27,707 nucleotides of DNA from IMG/VR virus record IMGVR_UViG_3300020045_011125, positions 1 to 27,707 of that record. The stretch is one strand, 5' to 3'. The notes below the pieces were generated by a model. It ran no database searches, had not been told where the DNA came from, and saw only the letters and a program-made list of their open reading frames with translations. Below, in pieces: positions 4,588 to 26,121 of this stretch (position 1 is the first letter of the stretch; each line of letters starts with the position of its first letter). Origin of the DNA: a virus. Taxonomy: Duplodnaviria; Caudoviricetes. The translations under genes were made by a program, and so were the position numbers.

Positions 4588-5067
4588 ATGATAATTCAGG
4601 GAACAAATAGGACAAGTGCTGCTAAGATCTTTCAGCAGGTTCACAATGTATCAGGAACAACTGCTACTACAGGTTTGGGTATGAAATTTGTAGGCGGAAC
4701 TCCTGCACAGATAGCTTCAACAGATGGTATACAGGCTGTTCCTATAGCAGCTTCAAATACTGCTGATTTAGCTTGGTTTGCAGGGATAGCAACGCAGGAT
4801 ATACCTAATGATAGTTATGGTTTGGTTCAGTGTTGGGGTATAAATACAAGCACACAGTTATCAGCAGAGGCAAATAAAACAGTAGCACCCGGAGCAACTA
4901 ATGATATGTGTTTGTTAAGACCCGGAGCAGTAGCAGGCACGTTTACAAGTGCTTTAGCAAATGCGGCAGCTATAGTATCTGTTATGGGCAAATATATACA
5001 GATACTTAACACTGTAAATATTTCAGGAGGAACTCCTTACGGGACTACGTTTATAAGAGCTATATAA
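4588..5067 (+). CDS. Putative capsid cement/decoration protein
   Basis: Ala/Gly/Thr-rich; 'FAGIA..DI....YGLVQ.WG' cement-like motif; followed by terminator. Confidence 0.65.
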   Translation: MIIQGTNRTSAAKIFQQVHNVSGTTATTGLGMKFVGGTPAQIASTDGIQAVPIAASNTADLAWFAGIATQDIPNDSYGLVQCWGINTSTQLSAEANKTVAPGATNDMCLLRPGAVAGTFTSALANAAAIVSVMGKYIQILNTVNISGGTPYGTTFIRAI

Positions 5068-5094
5068 AAAAAATAAAAAAGAAATAAAAAATTA

Positions 5095-5135
5095 GGCTGT
5101 AGGGACAGAAATGTCCTTGACAGCCTTTTTTTTTT
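5095..5135 (+). terminator. Intrinsic terminator
   Basis: GGCTGT-AGGGACA / GAAA / TGTCCTT-(G)-ACAGCC then 10 T. Confidence 0.85.
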
Positions 5136-5320: not shown

Positions 5321-5568
5321 TAGAAATAAAAGGTGGAAGAATTGAAACACAAGGAATAAATGATATGGATGAACTATATTATGAAATAACACCTTTATAT
5401 ATTAAAACAACTTTTAATTCTCGTAAAAAAATATTATGTTGTCTTGATAAAGAATATAAATATTATAAAGATATGCCAATAATTACAAGTCAAGAAGTTC
5501 CTGAAGGCGAGATATGGTTTGTTAATTCTAAAGATGAAATAATGGGTAAAATAACAGGGGTAAGTTAA
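5317..5568 (+). CDS. Hypothetical protein
   Basis: ATGA overlap with the upstream gene, GGGGAG RBS, TAATG coupling to the next gene. Confidence 0.6.
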   Translation: MIEIKGGRIETQGINDMDELYYEITPLYIKTTFNSRKKILCCLDKEYKYYKDMPIITSQEVPEGEIWFVNSKDEIMGKITGVS

Positions 5569-6299
5569 TGATTAAAAAAATACTATTCGGACTCCTTAAC
5601 AATGCCCATACCGAGCCAGAGGCATATGATAATCGTATGCAAATGATGTTACGTTTGGGAATGTTAGACACTGCTTCTAAAAATAAAATTAAAGTAGAAA
5701 ATATAGAATATCCTGAAGATATAGAATACGATTTTTCAATAGCAACCATAGGAGATACCTTTCCGGCCCTTGCAAGAGAGAGAATGGCAGAAGTAGCTGT
5801 AGATGATGGTTTTGACTATTTATTCATGGTAGACGATGATATGTTGTGTATGCCTAATCTTTTTGAAAGATTAGTAAGGCATAACGTAGACATTGTGGCA
5901 CCACTTGCCTTTACAAGACGGCACCCAATTTCACCGGTAGTTTATGCTTTAAATAAGGGATACGATCCTTTAACAAGGCAAAAATATTTTATCAATAACA
6001 TAGTTCACAATTATCCAAAAGATACATTGTTTGAATGTGACGCTGTTGGATTTGGTGCCGTTCTTATTAAAACTTCTGTATTTAAAGGAATGAAAAAGAA
6101 TTGGTTTATGTCGACCTCTCCGGCTGGCGAAGATATACAATTTTGTCATCTTGCAGGAGAACAAGGCTTTAAGATATTTTGCGATAGTTCGACTAAGATA
6201 ATACATCTTGGGGCCAGAGAACAGATAGATGAAGTGGTATATGAAAAAGAACAGAAGAATAAGGAGTATAGGGAAGTGATGGGTGAATTTAAGAAATAG
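5568..6299 (+). CDS. Glycosyltransferase family 2 (GT-A)
   Basis: 'ALARE.MA', 'YLFMVDDDM' DxD, 'AVGFGAVLIK..VF', 'GEDIQFC', 'IIH' motifs. Confidence 0.88.
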   Translation: MIKKILFGLLNNAHTEPEAYDNRMQMMLRLGMLDTASKNKIKVENIEYPEDIEYDFSIATIGDTFPALARERMAEVAVDDGFDYLFMVDDDMLCMPNLFERLVRHNVDIVAPLAFTRRHPISPVVYALNKGYDPLTRQKYFINNIVHNYPKDTLFECDAVGFGAVLIKTSVFKGMKKNWFMSTSPAGEDIQFCHLAGEQGFKIFCDSSTKIIHLGAREQIDEVVYEKEQKNKEYREVMGEFKK

Positions 6300-6331
6300 A
6301 TAAATTAAGAAATAGATAAATTAAGAAATAG
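6289..6331 (+). repeat. 16-bp tandem repeat (about 2.7 copies) spanning stop codon and next RBS
   Basis: TTAAGAAATAGATAAA at 6289 and 6305, partial at 6321. Confidence 0.9.
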
Positions 6332-6341
6332 GAGGATTAAT

Positions 6342-7262
6342 ATGTACGGAATATGCCGAGTAGATGGAAAGAGTGGGCATTATTGGTGGGTTCGTTTGAA
6401 TTATGTTGGTAGTAAGCCTACTATTCAAAAATGTTTCAGAGGAGATAAAGAACAAGCATTAAAAGAAGCAATCGCTTTTAGAGATTTTCACGCTATCAAG
6501 CCTCCAAGAGAAAAATATATAGAAAATTCAAAATATGAACAATGGCATACACCTAAAGAGCTTAAAGACAAATGGAAGGAAGAACGGTTGGAGAAAAGGT
6601 TGAATTTTTATAAACAAACAGGACAAAAAGTTGTGCATGTTGGTACAGGGATCGAAGCTGCAAAAAAAGCAAGGGCAATGGGGGCAAGTAAGGTTACTTG
6701 TTGGAAAATCAAGACAGGTAAAAGTGATTCATATCAAATTTATAACCAACTAAAAGGAGAAAACATAGAATGGAAAGACAGGCCTACAGGCAAAAAAAGG
6801 GATATAGAAATACAAAAACAGATAGGTAAAAAAAGAATTGTTTTAGGTACAGGAATAGAAGCGGCTCTTGAAGCAAAAAAGTTGGGAGCTTCTCAAGGTA
6901 AATGTTTAAATATACTAAACAAAAAGCAGTCCTTTTTTAATTCTTGCTGGACATTGCCCCATTATGAAGTAAATGGATTTCAGCAGGAATTGACGGAAGA
7001 TATTATTGAAAAAATAAATAATACTGTTTCAAGATATGTAAAAGAAGATTTTCAGATGGATGTTACTACAGAGGTTATGTTGAATTTTGCATCCAGGACA
7101 GAGATAGACAACATAGATGATTTCATAAGAGCATTAGTTTTTAAATATAATCAGATAATCAGATTAGAAAACAATGGAAGGTATATGGCAAATAAAAAAT
7201 GGGATACTTATGATTTTGAAAGAGCAAGATATGATGAAATGACAGAGAGAATTGAGTTTTAA
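6342..7262 (+). CDS. Putative DNA-binding protein: N-terminal AP2-like domain plus duplicated helical module
   Basis: 'YGICRVD...WWVRL...K.F...K.QAL.EAIAFRD' AP2-like pattern; repeat 'GTGIEAA..A...GAS...C..I' at 68-aa spacing. Confidence 0.6.
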   Translation: MYGICRVDGKSGHYWWVRLNYVGSKPTIQKCFRGDKEQALKEAIAFRDFHAIKPPREKYIENSKYEQWHTPKELKDKWKEERLEKRLNFYKQTGQKVVHVGTGIEAAKKARAMGASKVTCWKIKTGKSDSYQIYNQLKGENIEWKDRPTGKKRDIEIQKQIGKKRIVLGTGIEAALEAKKLGASQGKCLNILNKKQSFFNSCWTLPHYEVNGFQQELTEDIIEKINNTVSRYVKEDFQMDVTTEVMLNFASRTEIDNIDDFIRALVFKYNQIIRLENNGRYMANKKWDTYDFERARYDEMTERIEF

Positions 7263-7344
7263 ATAGGGAGTAAAACAGTTCCATGCAAAAGATTAATGTT
7301 CGCTCAAGCCGCTTACTTTACTTTTGCATGGTTTCCCCTTATTT
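7261..7344. other. Long intergenic hairpin
   Basis: CCATGCAAAAG (7281-7291) / CTTTTGCATGG (7321-7331) perfect 11 bp; outer AAATAGGGAG / CCCCTTATTT. Confidence 0.7.
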
Positions 7345-7346
7345 TT

Positions 7347-7403
7347 TCTAACGTAGCTCAGTTGGTAGAGCCTTGGTGCGCGGGTTCGAGTCCCGTAGGT
7401 AGC
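7347..7403 (+). pseudogene. tRNA-like element lacking anticodon arm
   Basis: Canonical TA-GCTC-AGTTGGTA-GAGC D-arm and GCGGG-TTCGAGT-CCCGT T-arm joined by only 8 nt; acceptor stem degenerate; no CCA. Confidence 0.75.
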
Positions 7404-7412
7404 TACTTTAAT

Positions 7413-7619
7413 ATGAAAGACAACTTAATAAATACAATATTTTTAATATATATAGGCTGGACTTTATCGGTTTTGATAAATCTATTCATATTTGATGGAT
7501 TTTGGATGAATCCTAACGGATATAGAAGATATCTGTATTATTTATTAATTGAAGCAGACAAAACAAAACACCATGACTTTGTTAGACATTTGTATGAAGA
7601 TGGGGTGATTAAAAAATGA
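7413..7619 (+). CDS. Small membrane protein
   Basis: One hydrophobic segment; start moved to Met40 since the longer ORF reads through the tRNA-like element. Confidence 0.55.
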   Translation: MKDNLINTIFLIYIGWTLSVLINLFIFDGFWMNPNGYRRYLYYLLIEADKTKHHDFVRHLYEDGVIKK

Positions 7620-7945
7620 AAACAGAAAAAACTTACGAACAATTTGTTAATAATTTTAAAGCTAAAATGAGTATTTTTTTACATGAAAATAAATATTTTA
7701 ATGAAAATAAAATAGATTATTCAGCAAAAGAGCCTTATATGGGATTTACTGATTATCCTTTGCCTAATATGGTAAATTTATCAGAACAAGAAAAAGAAAT
7801 TTGTTTTAAATATTATAATTTGCCTCATGAAGATTGTTTGAAAAATAATATATTTTATGAATTGACTAAATGTTATTTTAAAAAAACTATTTTGTCAAAA
7901 TATAAACATTTTTTAGATAGGTACATACAGGAAAATGAAAAATGA
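7616..7945 (+). CDS. Hypothetical protein (very AT-rich)
   Basis: ATGA overlaps at both ends. Confidence 0.6.
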   Translation: MKTEKTYEQFVNNFKAKMSIFLHENKYFNENKIDYSAKEPYMGFTDYPLPNMVNLSEQEKEICFKYYNLPHEDCLKNNIFYELTKCYFKKTILSKYKHFLDRYIQENEK

Positions 7946-8643
7946 TAGACATAATAATACCAACCTATGACAACGTAGACCAATTAGTACAATGTGTTTA
8001 TTCATTGGGGAAAGAACCTAACATTATCATTGTAAATAATGGTTTCCATCCATTAGAAAATTTTATACGGCAAGACAATGTTAAGATATTAACCCCTGGG
8101 GTTAATTTAGGCTGGGAAGGCGGACTTAAACATGGTCTCGAACATTGTAATAACGATATAGTAATATTTTCTAATGATGATATATTTATACCTTATTCAA
8201 GTGCTCATTGGCAGGAAAGTATTTACGATTGGCACGCTGTAAATGAAAAAGGTGCATTGGGATTTACTTCAAACTGTGTAAGCGGAAAACAAAATATATG
8301 GTATAGAAATGATGAAACAATAATTCAAACTACTTATCTTGTAGGGTTTTTTATGGTTTTAAATAGAAAGTCTTTAGACGCGGTAGGTGGTGTAGACGAT
8401 ACCTTGTGTGGAGGTGATGATATTGACCTTTCTATACGATTAAGGAAGGCAGGATATCCTTTATATATAGATACAAGTATTTTTATTTATCATCACGGTT
8501 TTCAGACAGGAACAAAATTAAATGGGGACCACACTAAAGAAGGCGGGTGGAACAGCAACAAGATGATAGAAGAGACTAATATGGCTTTAATAAAGAAACA
8601 TGGGTTTAATTGGTGGTTTAATACTATGAGTGGGGTGTTATGA
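7942..8643 (+). CDS. Glycosyltransferase family 2 (GT-A)
   Basis: 'IDIIIPTYD', 'IIIVNNG', 'NLGW.GG', 'FSNDD', 'VGG.D', 'GGDDIDLSIRLRKAGY', 'IYH' motifs. Confidence 0.92.
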   Translation: MIDIIIPTYDNVDQLVQCVYSLGKEPNIIIVNNGFHPLENFIRQDNVKILTPGVNLGWEGGLKHGLEHCNNDIVIFSNDDIFIPYSSAHWQESIYDWHAVNEKGALGFTSNCVSGKQNIWYRNDETIIQTTYLVGFFMVLNRKSLDAVGGVDDTLCGGDDIDLSIRLRKAGYPLYIDTSIFIYHHGFQTGTKLNGDHTKEGGWNSNKMIEETNMALIKKHGFNWWFNTMSGVL

Positions 8644-9491
8644 GAATATCAAACAGTTATTTAGGTTCAACGATAGGTAGAAATGATGGGGCACCTCTTT
8701 ATTATACAAATATAATGCGAAAATTAGGGCATGACGTCGTCCGACCTTGTGGACTTAAACCGATAGAACCTTTAGGTAAATGTGACTTTCATTTATGGGT
8801 TGATTGGGGCGAGGATGCCTTAAAACCTATGTTACCCAATGAACCTATAAATATGTCTTCTTATCATCCTTCTGTATATATTGCCTCGGATACTCATCTT
8901 GGATTTGACTACCGTCTCAACAAGGCAAAAGAGTTTGATTTTGTATTTTGCAATCAGAAAAGAGCTGTAGAAGAATTTGGAAAAAATGGAGTAAAATCAA
9001 CATGGCTTCCTCATGCCGCAGAACCTATGGCATATCCATGCATTCCTGAATGTATGAAAAAATATGACGTAAGTTTTGTAGGATATGTTTCTTTTCCTAA
9101 AAGAAGAGATGCTTTAGATAGAATTTTTAAATCTTTTGACAATTTTTTCTATGGACAAAGATTATTTGAATCAGCAGCAGAAATGTACAGAAAATCAAAG
9201 ATAGTTTTAAATACTGCTGCAGTTGACGATGTCAATATGAGAGTTTTTGAAACCCTTGCAACAAAGTCTTTCCTTTTAACTGAAGACATTCCTACCATAC
9301 ATGAATTATTTACAGACGGAAAACATTTAGTAACTTATAAAAATCTTGACGATGCTATTGATAAGATTAAATATTATTTGCAAAATGATGAGGAAAGGAA
9401 TAATATTGCCTTAGAGGGATATAAGGAATTTATATCTAAACATACTTATCAACATCGTTTTGAGACAATATTAAAAAGCATAAATTTATAA
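8640..9491 (+). CDS. CgeB-like glycosyltransferase (GT-B, Glyco_trans_1_2 type)
   Basis: 'WLPHA', 'YDVSFVG', 'SKIVLN', 'NMRVFE', 'FLLTE', 'IA..GY......HTY.HR' motifs. Confidence 0.9.
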   Translation: MRISNSYLGSTIGRNDGAPLYYTNIMRKLGHDVVRPCGLKPIEPLGKCDFHLWVDWGEDALKPMLPNEPINMSSYHPSVYIASDTHLGFDYRLNKAKEFDFVFCNQKRAVEEFGKNGVKSTWLPHAAEPMAYPCIPECMKKYDVSFVGYVSFPKRRDALDRIFKSFDNFFYGQRLFESAAEMYRKSKIVLNTAAVDDVNMRVFETLATKSFLLTEDIPTIHELFTDGKHLVTYKNLDDAIDKIKYYLQNDEERNNIALEGYKEFISKHTYQHRFETILKSINL

Positions 9492-13976: not shown

Positions 13977-14780
13977 ATGGCATCAGTAGCAGAATGGAAA
14001 CTTAATGATAATGCAGGAAATTCGAGTTGGCTTGATTCTTCTGGAAATGGGAATCATTTAGCAGGCGATAGCAATCCCACTTCTGCCACGGGACATGGTG
14101 GCACTGTTGCGGCTGCTGTTGATTTATCGTCAGCTATACTATATATAGCTGAAGTATCACAAATCGGTCTTGATTTGTCAACTGCGTGTATTTTGTCAGC
14201 ACGAATTAAAATATTTGATTCAACGCAGATAGGATACATAATTAGTAACAGTTATTTTGAAAATTTTTCATATTTATTGACATACGAAAATTCAGGAACA
14301 AATCTTTTCAAGATACGTTTCCAATGCTCCACTAATGGGAATACTTTTGATTTTGATCTTTACAATGATACAAATTTAAATATTAACACATGGTATCACA
14401 TCTGTGTTGTTTGGGATGGTATAGATATTAGAATATATGTAAATGCAATTTTGGATTGTACCCCTTTGGCATTTACAGGTACTCTTTTTAATAGTAACGG
14501 TGGATATATTATTATTGGAGGTACTGGTGTTGTAGATAATCTCACTTCTGGATATAGTGGTATTTTGGACGATGTCCGCATCTATGATAACGCCACAGAT
14601 ATTACTCCTGCTGAATTATATGCACTTGGGGATGATTTTGCAGCGGCAGTTGTGCCAGCAGCCCCCTCTGAAGATAATTCCCGAACAAAAACGAAACAAT
14701 GGGACAGTGTTCACACAACAACAGAGGCAAATTATAGGGCAAGAGAATTGATGTTTGGCGGAAAAAGAGGGAGGAGATAA
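13977..14780 (+). CDS. LamG/concanavalin A-like domain protein
   Basis: 'WKLND..G....DSSGNGNH', 'NTWYHICVVWDG..IRIYVN', 'YSGILDDVRIYD'. Confidence 0.9.
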   Translation: MASVAEWKLNDNAGNSSWLDSSGNGNHLAGDSNPTSATGHGGTVAAAVDLSSAILYIAEVSQIGLDLSTACILSARIKIFDSTQIGYIISNSYFENFSYLLTYENSGTNLFKIRFQCSTNGNTFDFDLYNDTNLNINTWYHICVVWDGIDIRIYVNAILDCTPLAFTGTLFNSNGGYIIIGGTGVVDNLTSGYSGILDDVRIYDNATDITPAELYALGDDFAAAVVPAAPSEDNSRTKTKQWDSVHTTTEANYRARELMFGGKRGRR

Positions 14781-14799
14781 TGAATAAGGGAGATAAAAA

Positions 14800-14997
14800 A
14801 TGGCTTTAAAAAATAAAAAAAATACATATATTATTTATCTACCTGTATTTGAAAAAAATGGTGAAGTTGACTATAATTATGTTGACTATAATTATGTTGA
14901 CTATAATTTAACACAAGAACCTGATGGTAGTGATCTTATTGATGGATGGAGCTATAAACCGTTTAAAATTGTTCCTTTTATCAAAGGAGAAAAATAA
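14800..14997 (+). CDS. Hypothetical protein with VDYNY repeats
   Basis: AGGGAG RBS; TAATG coupling to the next gene. Confidence 0.55.
   Translation: MALKNKKNTYIIYLPVFEKNGEVDYNYVDYNYVDYNLTQEPDGSDLIDGWSYKPFKIVPFIKGEK
14866..14908 (+). repeat. 15-bp tandem repeat (about 2.9 copies)
   Basis: GTTGACTATAATTAT at 14866 and 14881, partial at 14896. Confidence 0.9.
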
Positions 14998-16002: not shown

Positions 16003-17830
16003 ACCAGCAACAAGCATACAAAATTACCCTATGTCAATCGGGGGGGTGAATATTAGTAAAAATGTTGTTGAGTTACACCCTAAAGAATGCGTGTCAATGC
16101 AGAACGTTGTGTATAAGAACGGAATAAGAAAAAGGAAAGGGAACAGGAAAGTCAATTCTAATCAGGTTGTAGCCTCTAAAAAGATCCTGGGAGTTCACAA
16201 ATTTTATTATAGTACTTCTAAACAACTTTTGGCGGCGTGTGATACGAAGATAGTTTACGAGAATGGCGGGGTATGGACGGATGCTGTTACGGGGTTGACG
16301 AGTGATAGCGGGTGGCGGGCGGCAACGAGTTTTGCAACTTCTGTCTTTGATGCGGCAGCTACGAATTTAACAGGAATATCGATAGCAACTGATGGGACTC
16401 TTTGGGTTAGTGATGCAACTACCGACAAGATATATCACATAACAAATACAGGAACATTGATAAGTAGTTTTGCAACATCCGTTTTTGATGCAAGTGCTAC
16501 TGATGTAACAGGAGTATCAGTAGCGAATAATGGGACACTTTGGGTCTGTGATGCTGACACTAACAAAATCTACCACCTCGAACTCCTCAACAACAGCACC
16601 ACTTTCACCTCTTGGGGTGCAACTTCAAAATGTTACATTGCAAACGGTGTTGACGCTCCTCGTTCTTGGACAGGTTCAGCGGCGGCAACAGTTACGGCAG
16701 CACCTTCTCTTACTAAACAATTTTTACCTTATCAAGACCGTTTGCTTTCTATAGATAATAATAATAGAGGTTTCTTAAGATGGTCGGCTTCTTTTAGTGA
16801 CAGCGCAACTTGGGAAACTGCAGCAGCTTGCGGGGTGCAGCCTGATACGGATATACATGGGATGATACATCATTCTTTTAATAATAGTACTGCGGGACCG
16901 CAGTCGGCTGTTTTATTAGCCGGGGCTTCTGATATGTTTATATTTCAAGGAGCAAGCCTTGTTGTTCCTTTTACGGCTGGGAATTATACCATTTTCCCTC
17001 TTGGATTAAAGGTAGGATGTTCCGCTGTCAGGACTATGGCATGGACACCTATAGGTACTATCTGGCTGGGAAATGACAGACAAGTTTACCTGTTAAGATT
17101 TGACTCTGCAACTGCTATACCAATATCTCAAAAGATATATTCTTTCAACAATAATTTTCAAGGTTTAGAAAAGATACCTTCTGAACAGATTAAAAACGCT
17201 TGCGGTATCTACCATGAAGGGTATTACAAATTATCTTTTGCAGGGGCAGACAGCACTTTAAACAACTTCCAATTTTGGTTAGATATAAATAATTTTTACA
17301 AAGATGACTTGAATCAATACGGACCGTGGTACGGCAAAATGACAGGACAGACTATAGGTTGTTACGCTGTGCAAAATGGAACAGGGGACGGCGGCGAGTT
17401 GGTAATGGGAGAACAGAACGAAACCACCGGCGGATTTGTTTATATTCAGGATAATAACCAAGTTTATGGAGATCAGGCGGATTCATCGGGAAATAGCGGG
17501 ACTGCTATTGATATCAGTTATCAAACCTTTTATAATCCTTTGGGAGATCCTAATTATAAAAAGATAGTACCTCATATAGAATTAGAGGCTTTAACTTCAG
17601 CTACTAATATAACAATGGCGTATAATGATATAGACGCTTCTGCCGGGACAAGTTCTACATTTACAGTTTCAGGGACTACAGGATCTCCGGCAAGAAAAGT
17701 ATTACATATGTCTCCTGTTTTAAATATGAGGAGATTATCCTTAACTTTAACTCATAGCAGCGCAACTGCTGATTTTCAGATATATTCTATCAATGCAAAA
17801 ACTAAAGAGATGTTTTTACCTTTTACATAA
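15989..17830 (+). CDS. Tail nozzle / tubular protein B (P22 gp10-like beta-propeller)
   Basis: 'GG.N......L.P.E.....N......RKRKG', 'YQDRL', 'LRWS', 'GC.A.RT', position after adaptor. Confidence 0.82.
   Translation: MPTTEPATSIQNYPMSIGGVNISKNVVELHPKECVSMQNVVYKNGIRKRKGNRKVNSNQVVASKKILGVHKFYYSTSKQLLAACDTKIVYENGGVWTDAVTGLTSDSGWRAATSFATSVFDAAATNLTGISIATDGTLWVSDATTDKIYHITNTGTLISSFATSVFDASATDVTGVSVANNGTLWVCDADTNKIYHLELLNNSTTFTSWGATSKCYIANGVDAPRSWTGSAAATVTAAPSLTKQFLPYQDRLLSIDNNNRGFLRWSASFSDSATWETAAACGVQPDTDIHGMIHHSFNNSTAGPQSAVLLAGASDMFIFQGASLVVPFTAGNYTIFPLGLKVGCSAVRTMAWTPIGTIWLGNDRQVYLLRFDSATAIPISQKIYSFNNNFQGLEKIPSEQIKNACGIYHEGYYKLSFAGADSTLNNFQFWLDINNFYKDDLNQYGPWYGKMTGQTIGCYAVQNGTGDGGELVMGEQNETTGGFVYIQDNNQVYGDQADSSGNSGTAIDISYQTFYNPLGDPNYKKIVPHIELEALTSATNITMAYNDIDASAGTSSTFTVSGTTGSPARKVLHMSPVLNMRRLSLTLTHSSATADFQIYSINAKTKEMFLPFT
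16328..16577 (+). repeat. Two 46-aa NHL-like repeats inserted in nozzle gene
   Basis: SFATSVFDA.AT..TG.S.A..GTLWV.DA.T.KIYH at 16328 and 16466 (138-nt period). Confidence 0.85.
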
Positions 17831-21430: not shown

Positions 21431-24117
21431 TGCCTATAACTGTTGAAATACCTGAACATAATACATCTGTTGAATTTCCTGATGGCACACCTCCAGAAGT
21501 GATGCAAAAAGCTATTGAAAGTAACTTTCCTTCAAAAATATCTCAATCTCAACCTGTTACTCCGTCGATTCCTGAAGAGGTAACGTCTAAATTTAAGGAA
21601 ATCCCAACAATTCAAGGCGGAACAAGTTACGAAGTTCCTAAGCCTTTCAATTTACTTGGTGAAATAGGTAAAATGGCAACTCTTGGATCAGCAGAAGGTG
21701 TTATTCCTTTTGGGAAAGCACCTACTGTAAAAGAGGTAGCTTCTGCAATAATGCCTGAAACTGCTGCACAGGTAGGTGGTTTGATAGGGGGAGTTTTAGG
21801 GGGTCCGCTGGGAGCAGGTGTGTTTGCAGGGGGAGGCAGTATAGCTTCTGACGTTGGTAAAAGTTTAGCTGGTAAAGAAGTGGGGGGCTTTACAGGTGTT
21901 ATGAGTAGAGCCGCAGGTGAAGGGGCAATACAAGGGGTATTGGATATGTTTTCCATTCCTGTTGGGAAAGTAGTAAGTAAGGCAGCGGGTAAAATAGCAA
22001 CGGAAGCCACAGGAGGATTGTTTAAAGATATTGCAGGTAAAACTATAAAAACAAGTGAAAAGGTAATATCTCAAAAGGTTTTTGATACCGTTAATAAGGA
22101 CTCAAGTAATGCTTTAAAAACAATAAATCTTAATGTAGGTAGTTTTGATGGATTATCGCCAAAAGAAGCCTCAAATCTTGTAAAACAAAAAATGAACGAA
22201 CATGGCATCCCCTTAGATTCTCCTGCCAGGACTATTTTTGACAGAATAGCAGGGCTGTCTTGGATTGAGAGAAATTACGAAAAAGAACAACTCAATAAAG
22301 TTACTAAAGCGATGACAGATTTGACAGGAAAGAGATTGTCTGATAAGGAAAAGATATCTTTAGTGAGCACTATTCAAAATATTTTAGGCAAAGCTGTAGA
22401 AACTGAAAAAGGCTTTATATCAAGTATAGCAAAAGGTCAAAAAAACCTTGAAGAATCTCAACTTAAAAATGTTGACAAAGAAAACCTTGACACTGCTTTG
22501 AAATATTTCTTTGGGGAGAATGCGCCCACATATAAAACTTTAAGCAATCCTGTCCAATTTGCAAATGAACTTATTAATTTAAAAAGACAAAGAATTTATG
22601 AAAATGAATTAATTCCACCTATTAAAAAATTTACAAAAAAATTAGCTTCAGAAGGAAAAAATATATACCCTGAATTAACTGAAACAAGTAAAATGTTCAG
22701 AAAATATGATATTGAAAGAAAATTTAAAGTGGGTACAGGCGGACCAATTGAAGAATTGTTAAATTATATAAAAACAGACAAAAAGGATTCAGGAGTATCT
22801 AAACATGTAATGGATTTAGTAAGTGGTGATCCTAATCTTGAACAATGGATGATTGAAAAATATGGTAAAAATATTACTCAATATGATCCTTCTGAAATAG
22901 TAAGAATTGTTACTGCATTAAATGACAAAATAAGCGATGTTCCTGGTATTAACAATTATGCAAAAGGTGAAATAAGAGCTGCATTAAAATCAGATTTAGG
23001 TAATTTTTTCACTTCTAATAGCAGAGAAGATTTAGCAAATTTATATAAAACTAAATTGACTGAATATGGGAAGATATCTGATAAATTAGATGCTATTAAA
23101 AACCTTTCAGAAAAAACACCCAATACATTATTTGAAACTTTAACTCCTGACGGCATGACTGATATTAAAAATGCCTTAACAGAAACAACAAAGGATAAAA
23201 GTGATAATATATCAAAACTTTTAAAACAAGGTCATGCCGCATACATAACAGGAATTGACGAAGTAGGCGGTATATCTATTGAAGAGATGAAAAAGAGAGC
23301 TGCTAAACTTGGGAAGGCTGGACTTGAAGATTTATGGGGAACAAAAGGGGCAAAAGATACTGTTGATTTTATAAATGATCTTGCCTCAAGATCTTCAATT
23401 AAAAAAGATGCAGTAACCGCTTCTATGCCTAAACTTCCTACGCATAATGTCTTTTTTGAGCAACTTGCCAATACTAAAGAAGGATTAAAATATATAGTTC
23501 CTGAATTATTAAAAAATCCAAAGCAGATATCTGAAGTCCAATCTTTAATAGGTAGGGATGCTTCAAAAAAGATGGTAGATGCCTTTAATGACCATCTTTT
23601 CCCACTTACCGCTTCTGGGGCGTTCCCTATCAAAGAAGCGGTAAAAACATTAGAAGCTATAGAAACTGACCATGTTAAACATGAAGCATTGAAACAAGTT
23701 TTTAAAGGGAGAGAGGAACAACTTGCAGCTATTAAAGATTTGATATATACAGTCAGCAAAGGTGCAAAAGGAGCACAAGAAACAAGTTCTCACTTTGGCG
23801 CGAATGTTACCACAGGTTTGACTGGAGGTGTTGTTTTTATAACTTCGCCTTTAGCAGTTGCGCCTATTGCTATTGGTTTGGCAGGATTACAACAAATACT
23901 TCATAACCCTGGACTAACTAAAAAATTGGGACAAGCTCTTACAGGCACTGCTGATAAAAAAATACTTGACGAATTAGCTAAAATAACAGTAAAATCAATG
24001 GAAAATAATTTTATAAACAATTTGAAAAGTACAACTTCTATAACAACTAACCAAGAAAATAAGACTGAACCGGGGATGTTGGAGAAAGCCTTAAATTATG
24101 GTAATTCAAAAAGATGA
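21430..24117 (+). CDS. Large internal virion/ejection protein
   Basis: 895 aa; N-terminal 'VEFPDGTP.E', glycine-zipper 'GGLIGGVLGGPLGAG', hydrophobic C-terminal segment. Confidence 0.7.
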   Translation: MPITVEIPEHNTSVEFPDGTPPEVMQKAIESNFPSKISQSQPVTPSIPEEVTSKFKEIPTIQGGTSYEVPKPFNLLGEIGKMATLGSAEGVIPFGKAPTVKEVASAIMPETAAQVGGLIGGVLGGPLGAGVFAGGGSIASDVGKSLAGKEVGGFTGVMSRAAGEGAIQGVLDMFSIPVGKVVSKAAGKIATEATGGLFKDIAGKTIKTSEKVISQKVFDTVNKDSSNALKTINLNVGSFDGLSPKEASNLVKQKMNEHGIPLDSPARTIFDRIAGLSWIERNYEKEQLNKVTKAMTDLTGKRLSDKEKISLVSTIQNILGKAVETEKGFISSIAKGQKNLEESQLKNVDKENLDTALKYFFGENAPTYKTLSNPVQFANELINLKRQRIYENELIPPIKKFTKKLASEGKNIYPELTETSKMFRKYDIERKFKVGTGGPIEELLNYIKTDKKDSGVSKHVMDLVSGDPNLEQWMIEKYGKNITQYDPSEIVRIVTALNDKISDVPGINNYAKGEIRAALKSDLGNFFTSNSREDLANLYKTKLTEYGKISDKLDAIKNLSEKTPNTLFETLTPDGMTDIKNALTETTKDKSDNISKLLKQGHAAYITGIDEVGGISIEEMKKRAAKLGKAGLEDLWGTKGAKDTVDFINDLASRSSIKKDAVTASMPKLPTHNVFFEQLANTKEGLKYIVPELLKNPKQISEVQSLIGRDASKKMVDAFNDHLFPLTASGAFPIKEAVKTLEAIETDHVKHEALKQVFKGREEQLAAIKDLIYTVSKGAKGAQETSSHFGANVTTGLTGGVVFITSPLAVAPIAIGLAGLQQILHNPGLTKKLGQALTGTADKKILDELAKITVKSMENNFINNLKSTTSITTNQENKTEPGMLEKALNYGNSKR

Positions 24118-24289
24118 ATACGTTAATGAATATGTTCTTAATGAGATATGTTTACTCAAACATAAAGAGGTTGCCGAATTGAAAAAAAAAGTGGAAACAA
24201 TAGAAGATAAATTATCTAAACTTAATACTACCGGCTGGATGATAGTAGCCGGTATTTTTGTTGAAATTGTTTTAAGATTTTTTAAATAA
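24098..24289 (+). CDS. Coiled-coil plus single TM protein (holin-like)
   Basis: 'C..KH' then coiled coil then WMIVAGIFVEIVL. Confidence 0.55.
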   Translation: MVIQKDEYVNEYVLNEICLLKHKEVAELKKKVETIEDKLSKLNTTGWMIVAGIFVEIVLRFFK

Positions 24290-24295
24290 AATAAC

Positions 24296-24435
24296 CCTTT
24301 AAATGAAGATATTAATTTATGTATAAATAGTACTCTATTTTTTACGCATGGGTGAGCTAAAAAATAGAGGAACCATGCTACTTTATATGTAAATGTGGGT
24401 CTATACAAATTTCGCCAAAAATCTTCATTTAAAGG
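24296..24435. ncRNA. Candidate structured RNA (nested stems plus pseudoknot)
   Basis: 15-bp perfect terminal IR, inner TGTATA/TATACA, 12-bp hairpin whose loop GCATGG complements downstream CCATGC. Confidence 0.6.
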
Positions 24436-24456
24436 TAACTAAATAGGAGGCTATAT

Positions 24457-24606
24457 ATGCCCTTAATGTCAGGAAGTTCAAAGAAGGTAATAGGGAAGAA
24501 TATAAGAACTGAAATAAAGGCAGGGAAACCAAGGAAACAGGCTATTGCTATTGCAATGTCTAAGGCTGGGAAGAGTAAAAAAAAAGTGAAAAAGACGAAG
24601 TATTGA
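24457..24606 (+). CDS. Small basic phage protein (49 aa), absent from ORF track
   Basis: AGGAGG RBS; [43 protein letters not shown].., the common 'QAIAIA' family. Confidence 0.85.
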
Positions 24607-24671: not shown

Positions 24672-24989
24672 ATGAATGAAATAAAAAATTGCAGAGTAGA
24701 AAATTTTAAAAATCCCATTACAGACTGCCCAGGAGGAGGTTGTGTAGAAGGGATAGGAATTAACATTCGATGGCAAGAAGGCGCAATACAGGAATCGGGA
24801 GTAAATGGAGCTTTTGTTGAAACTGTAATATCAGCGGCTATTCAGCGGTTAGATTTTTTTCAGGATTCTCCTTTTAAATGCAGGGAGAACGCAGTAGCAT
24901 TAACTCATCTTGAGACCGCTCTTCTATGGTTAGAAAAGAGGACACAAAACCGAATAGATAGGGGAGTAGAGGGAACTCATAAAATCTAA
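24672..24989 (+). CDS. tad1: Tad1-family anti-defence signal-sponge protein
   Basis: 'I.WQEGA..E.GVNG...E.......RL..FQ.SPF.CRENA.ALTHLE.AL.WL..R...RI.RGV.GT' closely follows the Tad1 C-terminal consensus; AGGAGG RBS. Confidence 0.85.
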   Translation: MNEIKNCRVENFKNPITDCPGGGCVEGIGINIRWQEGAIQESGVNGAFVETVISAAIQRLDFFQDSPFKCRENAVALTHLETALLWLEKRTQNRIDRGVEGTHKI

Positions 24990-25872: not shown

Positions 25873-26121
25873 TTAAAATCCTAAATCATCCCAAAACAAT
25901 TCAATTTTACCCTTTCGATGAAAAAGAAAGAAGTCAATAGCAAGACTTGTTAAATGTTTAGAATTTTTAGTCTTGCTAAGTCCTTGTTTAATATATATAT
26001 CTTGTTGTTCTTGTGATCTTTTAGCTTCTCCAAATGTTAATTCGTAACCTTTTTGATAAGCATAATCAATTAACTTTGACACTAATAATACAAATTTACT
26101 TTGTTGCTGTCTGAGTGTCAT
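25873..26121 (-). CDS. M15-family peptidase (endolysin-like), C-terminally truncated
   Basis: 'L...Q..F.....LI.YA...GY.LT.GEA.R', 'SKH...LAID' (H-x6-D); ends at 82 aa with no final GG.W/D..H motif. Confidence 0.75.
   Translation of the reverse strand: MTLRQQQSKFVLLVSKLIDYAYQKGYELTFGEAKRSQEQQDIYIKQGLSKTKNSKHLTSLAIDFFLFHRKGKIELFWDDLGF

Follow-up and report, generated by a model that had tools for sequence, protein, structure and literature searches.

A possible MITE-like insertion with a predicted rod-shaped transcript upstream of a Tad1-family gene in a podovirus-like phage

The stretch of DNA analysed here (the window, 27,707 nt) is a whole 27.7-kb phage record with a podovirus-like layout, with convergent small genes on the - strand. 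The + strand encodes a portal, a capsid protein, an SU10-type adaptor, glycosyltransferases, and large orphan proteins. Three glycosyltransferase-like genes (5568-9491) occupy the interval between capsid and tail genes, in the same order in the related phage loci L272 and L273, and are possibly involved in virion glycosylation. Within the 613-aa tail gene, positions 16328-16576 hold two 111-nt direct repeats, 75% identical, which match an NHL-like insert absent from most relatives. An endolysin-like ORF of only 82 aa (25873-26121, - strand; phrog_465, E 8e-10) lies on the opposite strand to holin-like genes and appears truncated or split; in L272, too, the holin-like genes are directly followed by an ORF on the other strand, of 195 aa.

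The element considered here (24296-24435, 140 nt) lies within the 167-nt gap that separates a 63-aa ORF from the gene for a 49-aa basic protein. The features of the region, read from the sequence or from the predicted fold, are as follows:

24098-24289, + strand: 63-aa ORF, coiled-coil-like with a hydrophobic C-terminus, putatively a small lysis-type membrane protein
24292-24295: left copy of TAAC, candidate target-site duplication
24296-24310, + strand: left terminal inverted repeat, 15 bp (5' strand of helix P1)
24315-24332, + strand: 5' strand of the predicted middle helices, 13 bp with 24382-94 and 5 bp with 24376-80, including three G-U pairs
24333-24369, + strand: P3, a perfect 12-bp hairpin with a 13-nt loop containing GCATGG, in which two more G-C pairs are predicted
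24370-24378, + strand: predicted 6-nt bulge and CCATGC, the complement of the loop (cis pseudoknot disfavoured)
24375-24446, + strand: mini-ORF MLLYM, then an in-frame 17-codon ORF whose stop overlaps the next ribosome binding site (RBS)
24395-24420, + strand: predicted 3' bubble, 26 nt, weakly structured, opposite 4 nt
24421-24435, + strand: right terminal inverted repeat, 15 bp (3' strand of P1)
24436-24439: right copy of TAAC
24445-24450, + strand: AGGAGG, RBS of the basic-protein gene, outside the element
24457-24606, + strand: 49-aa basic protein of phrog_2423, a family without assigned function (E 7e-20; weak DUF6496 match below cut-off)
24672-24989, + strand: 105-aa Tad1/Acb2-family protein (PDB 8KBB, phrog_2428)

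The preliminary description of this locus took the gap to be the biggest non-coding one hereabouts. It is the second of 37 on the + strand, after a 325-nt gap that contains a DUF2292-like ORF. That longer gap precedes a scaffold-like gene. At 2111-2360 it contains a promoter-like sequence close to the sigma-70 consensus and, at 2163-2291, the DUF2292-like ORF of 42 aa (Pfam E 0.033, below cut-off), along with a long hairpin and a T run that together probably form a terminator upstream of the capsid genes. The element begins 6 nt past the stop codon of the 63-aa ORF and ends 9 nt ahead of the RBS. Subtracting 144 bp (the 140 plus one TAAC) would leave a stop-to-start gap of 23 nt, an ordinary spacing here, where nine of the 37 gaps are 18-35 nt and 35 are at most 65 nt. 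No transposase is found among the 47 window proteins, and no origin, integrase or packaging gene adjoins the element, which is bounded by neither promoter nor terminator; no sigma-70-like promoter was found in 24255-24456.

The 63-aa ORF belongs to no family, matching only itself and, weakly, one other among 1.84 billion representatives. The Tad1-like gene recognized in the preliminary description is genuine as judged by sequence comparison: seven PDB sequences match, the best being 8KBB ("Thoeris anti-defense 1", E 4.5e-20), with phrog_2428 at E 1.7e-29 and PF24729 below cut-off, placing the 105-aa protein in the Tad1/Acb2 family. It is without some 5-7 residues (the GPLGR..R..P loop) kept in nearly all of 47 aligned relatives. 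It is followed by a 47-aa basic ORF and then a 60-aa hydrophobic ORF. The basic-protein and Tad1 genes had been regarded as a cassette; since none of 201 loci (80 with basic-protein relatives and 121 with Tad1 relatives, flanks up to 2-3 kb) has both, no conserved cassette is seen. The MLLYM mini-ORF is present as previously noted, with a spacing of 4 nt from GAGG to ATG, compared to 5-15 nt in those + strand genes that carry a motif of this kind (24 of 38), and going by the sequence it is probably not translated.

The + strand of the element has a predicted fold of -43 kcal/mol (z -5.23, beaten by none of 200 shuffles; z -5.16 for the - strand), which bears out its earlier recognition as a discrete, strongly structured element. 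With hand-chosen ends it is the best of 395 140-nt windows (z -6.7, 12 shuffles each), and on the grid its window (z -5.2) is tied with one at 4971, again with 12 shuffles each. The runner-up folding windows, 4971-5110 (z -5.2) and 14771-14910 (z -4.6, 12 shuffles), each span a gene junction. The predicted ensemble is a 47-bp bulged rod, with nearly all pairs at probabilities of 0.86-1.0. From the base it consists of P1 (15 bp), a bubble of 4 x 26 nt, a 13-bp helix (24315-27/24382-94, 0.86-1.0), a 1-nt bulge, a 5-bp helix (24328-32/24376-80), a 6-nt bulge, and at the tip the 12 bp of P3 with two extra pairs in its loop. The longest near-regular helix is thus 18 bp with a 1-nt bulge, and the others are 12 and 15 bp. 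The middle helices are present in prefix folds once their 3' strands exist, and are predicted to persist to 55 C. Unpaired bases are mostly on the 3' side (33 nt vs. 4 nt). The three non-Watson-Crick pairs are all G-U on the + strand, which is predicted to fold at -42.0 kcal/mol vs. -36.6 for the - strand, a weak hint of selection on RNA. Both strands also fold as DNA (-25 and -22 kcal/mol), and three pieces of the 3' arm, read as reverse complement, account for 45 of the 49 nt in the 5' arm.

The terminal repeat is perfect (15/15 bp), with no G-U pairs and sharp ends, and is the longest of 33 perfect inverted repeats of at least 10 bp, within 400 nt, in the window. A perfect repeat of at least 15 bp within 200 nt occurred once in 60 block-shuffled genomes. 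TAAC abuts both arms exactly, forming a 4-bp direct repeat overlooked in the preliminary description. Flanking direct repeats of at least 4 bp were found at 10 of 598 chance inverted repeats in shuffled sequence and at three of 167 natural ones in 278 fetched loci (omitting masked N runs and 29 loci picked by repeat pattern), so the control rates are 1.7-1.8%. TAAC is a short repeat, recognised only in retrospect; its duplication would have come about by insertion. On a rough score with mononucleotide shuffles, the element is 21st of 61 repeat-bounded segments in 925 kb (the window and the fetched loci), and of the best 25 of these 61 no other has any direct repeat at its flanks. Other records contain inverted repeats near Tad1-like genes that are perfect over 21-23 bp (L162:4172-4341 and L189:867-1125).

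An alignment of 41 tail proteins led to eight related loci, of which L272 and L273, the closest phages, keep the gene order, with capsid identities of 44% and 55%. In the syntenic stretch of L272 there is no gap, as the large orphan gene and two ORFs of 68 and 66 aa run into one another with 4-nt overlaps; in L273 the syntenic gap is 6 nt. In the stretches compared, neither locus has a match to any window protein from 24098 on or to the element, and neither has a rod-like stem at the syntenic position. The element, basic-protein gene, Tad1 gene, and 47-aa ORF are therefore considered an accessory block, and since the whole 850-bp block is absent from L272, that locus is not an empty site. A terminator-like G+C-rich hairpin within the 63-aa ORF (24229-24254, + strand) would, if active, split the accessory block from the late operon; such hairpins are at chance level (one found vs. 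1.5 expected). Locus searches with single proteins found no relatives for the 63-aa, 613-aa and capsid proteins, and for an 895-aa protein only itself.

Searches for the element elsewhere were made at several levels. There is no second copy within the 27.7-kb contig. With blastn, 141 weak records were found among phages, none covering 80%, and six partial ones among plasmids. The pattern of both arms has no match in viral contigs and 29 in genomes, none with a similar interior. Eight of the 29 were set aside as tandem-repeat arrays in Bacteroidota (L202, L203, L211, L213, L216, L219, L221, and L222); these are palindromic arrays of a 7-base unit with long hairpins, located around position 1501 (84 in L222), three of them in one Prevotella genome, and are unrelated to the element. 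Among GTDB genomes the end pattern has 39 exact 20-base matches, with three loci having a 3-mismatch partner and none a direct repeat. No insertion sequence (IS) with the same ends was found among these matches or in 132 genomes at one mismatch, a search that more diverged ends would escape. One pair of inward-facing ends 4.4 kb apart (G075) was rejected: it encloses ordinary enzyme genes, one arm is in an ORF, and there is no direct repeat. A covariance model built from the single sequence, which is insensitive, found no homologue in 224 sources (97 + 100 + 27), nor in any of the 132 genomes. DNA searches of three phyla, in samples of 401 genomes, gave two, zero, and six partial matches of 21-47 nt, chance-like and without a rod fold. 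Upstream of basic-protein relatives there is no such rod among the regions listed, and the covariance model covered all 80 loci. The metagenome collection was scanned with the Tad1 alignment only. Genome lineages were chosen only for containing relatives of the neighbouring genes; with this choice and the insensitive one-sequence model, the absence of homologues is weak evidence.

Comparison with known RNA classes was similarly negative. Rfam 15 gives no match at gathering score and, at E up to 10, three chance matches (E 2-7.7), none to a ribozyme or riboswitch. An integron attC site was rejected, there being no 7-base R box consensus on either strand of 24270-24460; a retron ncRNA, there being no reverse transcriptase among the 47 window proteins of a contig that may be incomplete; and a tRNA or tmRNA, ARAGORN having found no genes.

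The element is real and well-formed, and probably of a known kind. The explanation we favour, tentatively and at a little less than even confidence, is that it is a MITE-like, non-autonomous insertion whose transcript is predicted to be a long bulged rod and not a pseudoknot. Its ends are sharp and perfect over 15 bp, where terminal inverted repeats of at least 10-15 bp are expected of MITEs, and the abutting TAAC copies are within the expected range of 2-10 bp; it is 140 bp long, A+T-rich, intergenic, and without transposase or notable coding capacity, and it forms a stable stem-loop (z -5.2). In the preliminary description a MITE was named as an alternative that, like an Rfam match, would overturn its model; the anatomy (terminal repeat and TAAC) lends support to the former, while the latter is absent. 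Against a MITE are the lack of a second copy, parent IS, window transposase, or empty site in the searches made, the shortness and after-the-fact recognition of the direct repeat, the G-U bias, and a low base rate in viruses. The occurrence of MITEs in phages is documented, and they are reported as directly detected in 0.01% of viral sequences (PMC11602168). If the flanking TAAC copies are taken to raise the likelihood roughly 10- to 25-fold, weighing this against the low prior brings the matter to about even, as a judgement and not a computation.

If the element is such an insertion, a host transposase acting in trans would have inserted it behind a stop codon and ahead of the following RBS, with TAAC duplicated in the process, and the insertion would have been tolerated because it left both genes and the RBS intact, as their reading frames and the RBS itself are seen to be. 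It would then be co-transcribed in the late + strand mRNA as the predicted rod, whose 18-bp and 12-15-bp helices may be cut or bound by host RNase III. Incidentally to this, the basic-protein and Tad1 message may become more or less stable, as with Neisseria and Yersinia MITEs: in the account of bacterial MITEs in PMC2229807, NEMIS RNA is a proposed RNase III target and ERIC RNA changes mRNA stability.

The main rival, possible but distinctly less probable, makes the same prediction at the RNA level and differs in origin. It would be a phage-native intercistronic stem, resembling a T7 RNase III signal or a 5' stabilising leader, that processes or stabilises the basic-protein and Tad1 mRNA, with TAAC there by chance. 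The fit of the element between the preceding stop codon and the following RBS, the concentration of unpaired bases on the 3' side, and the G-U pairs favouring the + strand all accord with it, and there is precedent in T7 polycistronic RNA, where RNase III is described as acting at five signals (PMC3867540). According to the same source, irregular helices may be cut on a single strand, which leaves 3' hairpins with a stabilising effect; the idealised RNase III helix is 22 bp, and many cellular substrates are shorter than about 20 bp. The longest near-regular helix of the rod, at 18 bp with its bulge, is under that ideal. No such stem is seen at the syntenic position in L272 or L273, and no sigma-70-like promoter was found nearby (24255-24456); this explanation also leaves TAAC unexplained, at a chance rate of less than one in fifty.

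An unlikely third explanation is a quasi-palindrome that is neutral or acts at the DNA level. Template switching in replication or recombination could have produced it when the block was acquired, or it may serve as a cruciform or protein-binding site. The folding of both DNA strands, the near-complete match of the 5' arm to the reverse complement of three 3'-arm pieces, and the location of the element on the border of a block that L272 lacks are in keeping with this, and segments of similar score are not rare by the rough ranking above. It accounts for neither the direct repeat nor the G-U bias, however, and no adjacent origin, integrase or packaging gene is present.

Still less likely is a discrete phage small RNA from the late transcript that the basic proteins encoded nearby may bind, with GCAUGG of one molecule kissing CCAUGC of a second in trans. 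The loop complement is modestly non-random (p 0.034 for its occurrence anywhere in the 66 nt downstream and 0.004 for starting within 7 nt), yet it is disfavoured in cis by geometry; perfectly paired ends are a feature shared with stable small RNAs, and there are two small basic ORFs downstream. Half of CCAUGC, however, is paired in the rod at 0.95-0.99, the covariance searches revealed no homologue in the 224 sources or the 132 genomes, and neither promoter nor terminator marks out such a transcript. A more elaborate version, very improbable in our estimation, would have a 140-nt rod cut from the late transcript, oligomerising by loop-to-bulge kissing and assembling with the two basic proteins as the RNA arm of an anti-defence block beside Tad1.

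Least likely is the model of the preliminary description, a pseudoknotted ribozyme or ligand-sensing cis-switch over the basic-protein and Tad1 genes, which we consider very unlikely. Its P1 and P3 complementarities are present, and both are in the predicted rod. The complementarity of P2 (24320-25/24402-07) exists as well, but none of its pairs exceeds a probability of 0.1, its bases going into the 24315-27/24382-94 helix; similarly, GCATGG and CCATGC are complementary, but 24376-78 are taken by the 24328-32/24376-80 helix. P1, P2 and P3 together reach -24.7 kcal/mol vs. -39.3 for the rod, a deficit of some 15 kcal/mol. A hybrid of P1, the 13-bp helix, and P3 that leaves room for the knot comes to -29.9 kcal/mol, and the six Watson-Crick pairs of the knot would add -12 kcal/mol of stacking before any pseudoknot penalty, approaching the rod, so that energy alone excludes P2 and not the knot. 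Geometry was considered with a coarse A-form model, checked against an expected deep-groove minimum of 10 A at 6-7 bp, and two control knots passed it. Pseudoknot loops have to cross the grooves and are constrained by how long the opposite stem is, as outlined in PMC2853144; in the model, a stacked H-type knot across the 12-bp stem would need about 45 A (some 6.5 nt) where 3 nt are present. With strict tethers none of 600,000 placements was allowed, while one extra nt per loop gave 359 of 600,000 rigid placements that were clash-free and unstacked, and fraying P3 to 8 bp, at the cost of its only G-C pairs, allowed 114 of 20,000 checked placements. The strict tether model is somewhat too tight, so that a strained side-by-side form of the knot is conceivable. 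The interhelix loop would be 6 nt, whereas over 90% of PseudoBase knots are reported to have one of at most 2 nt (PMC1802631). With stacked geometry excluded in the model and the deficit of P1, P2 and P3, the H-type pseudoknot is not supported. A pattern for the pseudoknot core has three viral matches, chance-like and none a rod. A ribozyme gains no support, with no Rfam ribozyme at E up to 10 and no hammerhead core motif, nor does a translational switch: no predicted pairing of the element with the RBS region exceeds a probability of 6e-5, and, whether or not the element is present, the RBS is predicted to be paired to the same extent with the early part of the coding sequence. That no locus among the 201 has both basic-protein and Tad1 relatives also weighs against this model.

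If the element is a MITE, it would be a host tag for a podovirus-like phage, as shared MITEs are described as linking viruses to hosts (PMC11602168). Mobile DNA would, moreover, have landed just upstream of an anti-defence gene, where it could change mRNA processing; this is of modest import. A self-assembling phage RNA beside Tad1 would, if true, be a new type of RNA in counter-defence, although this is a long shot.

Among known systems, the element resembles H-type pseudoknots and the small ribozymes and riboswitches of Rfam 15 in having a hairpin loop complementary to a 3' segment. It differs from the pseudoknots in its 12-bp first stem, 3-nt spanning loop, and 6-nt interhelix loop, and from both in having a stronger competing helix and no family match. 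The ends of IS1380-family elements start with CC, and their target duplications are 4-5 bp. The ends of the element resemble these, but no transposase with such ends was found and the link, by analogy, is only a lead. To T7-type RNase III signals, as described in PMC3867540, it is similar as an irregular double helix between genes in a phage polycistronic region, and unlike them it has a perfect terminal repeat with direct-repeat flanks, is absent from related phages, and is only a putative RNase III substrate. The viral MITEs (vMITE and si-vMITE) of PMC11602168 are called where they form multi-copy families or are 95% identical to a cellular MITE, whereas the element is likened to them by its anatomy; its terminal repeat, direct repeat, and length lie within the ranges given there (terminal inverted repeats of 10-15 bp or more, target-site duplications of 2-10 bp, and 50-800 bp overall). 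Bacterial MITEs, in the account of Delihas (2008; PMC2229807), are under 200 bp, A+T-rich, with terminal inverted repeats, target duplications, and end-paired stem-loops. The element differs from those described there (Correia/NEMIS, ERIC, RUP, RPE, and YPAL) in having no TA terminal motif and in being a single copy in a phage, with no similar record found; with them it shares a length of 100-200 bp, a non-coding, A+T-rich, intergenic character, terminal inverted repeats, a flanking duplication, and a long stem-loop in which the 5' and 3' ends are paired.
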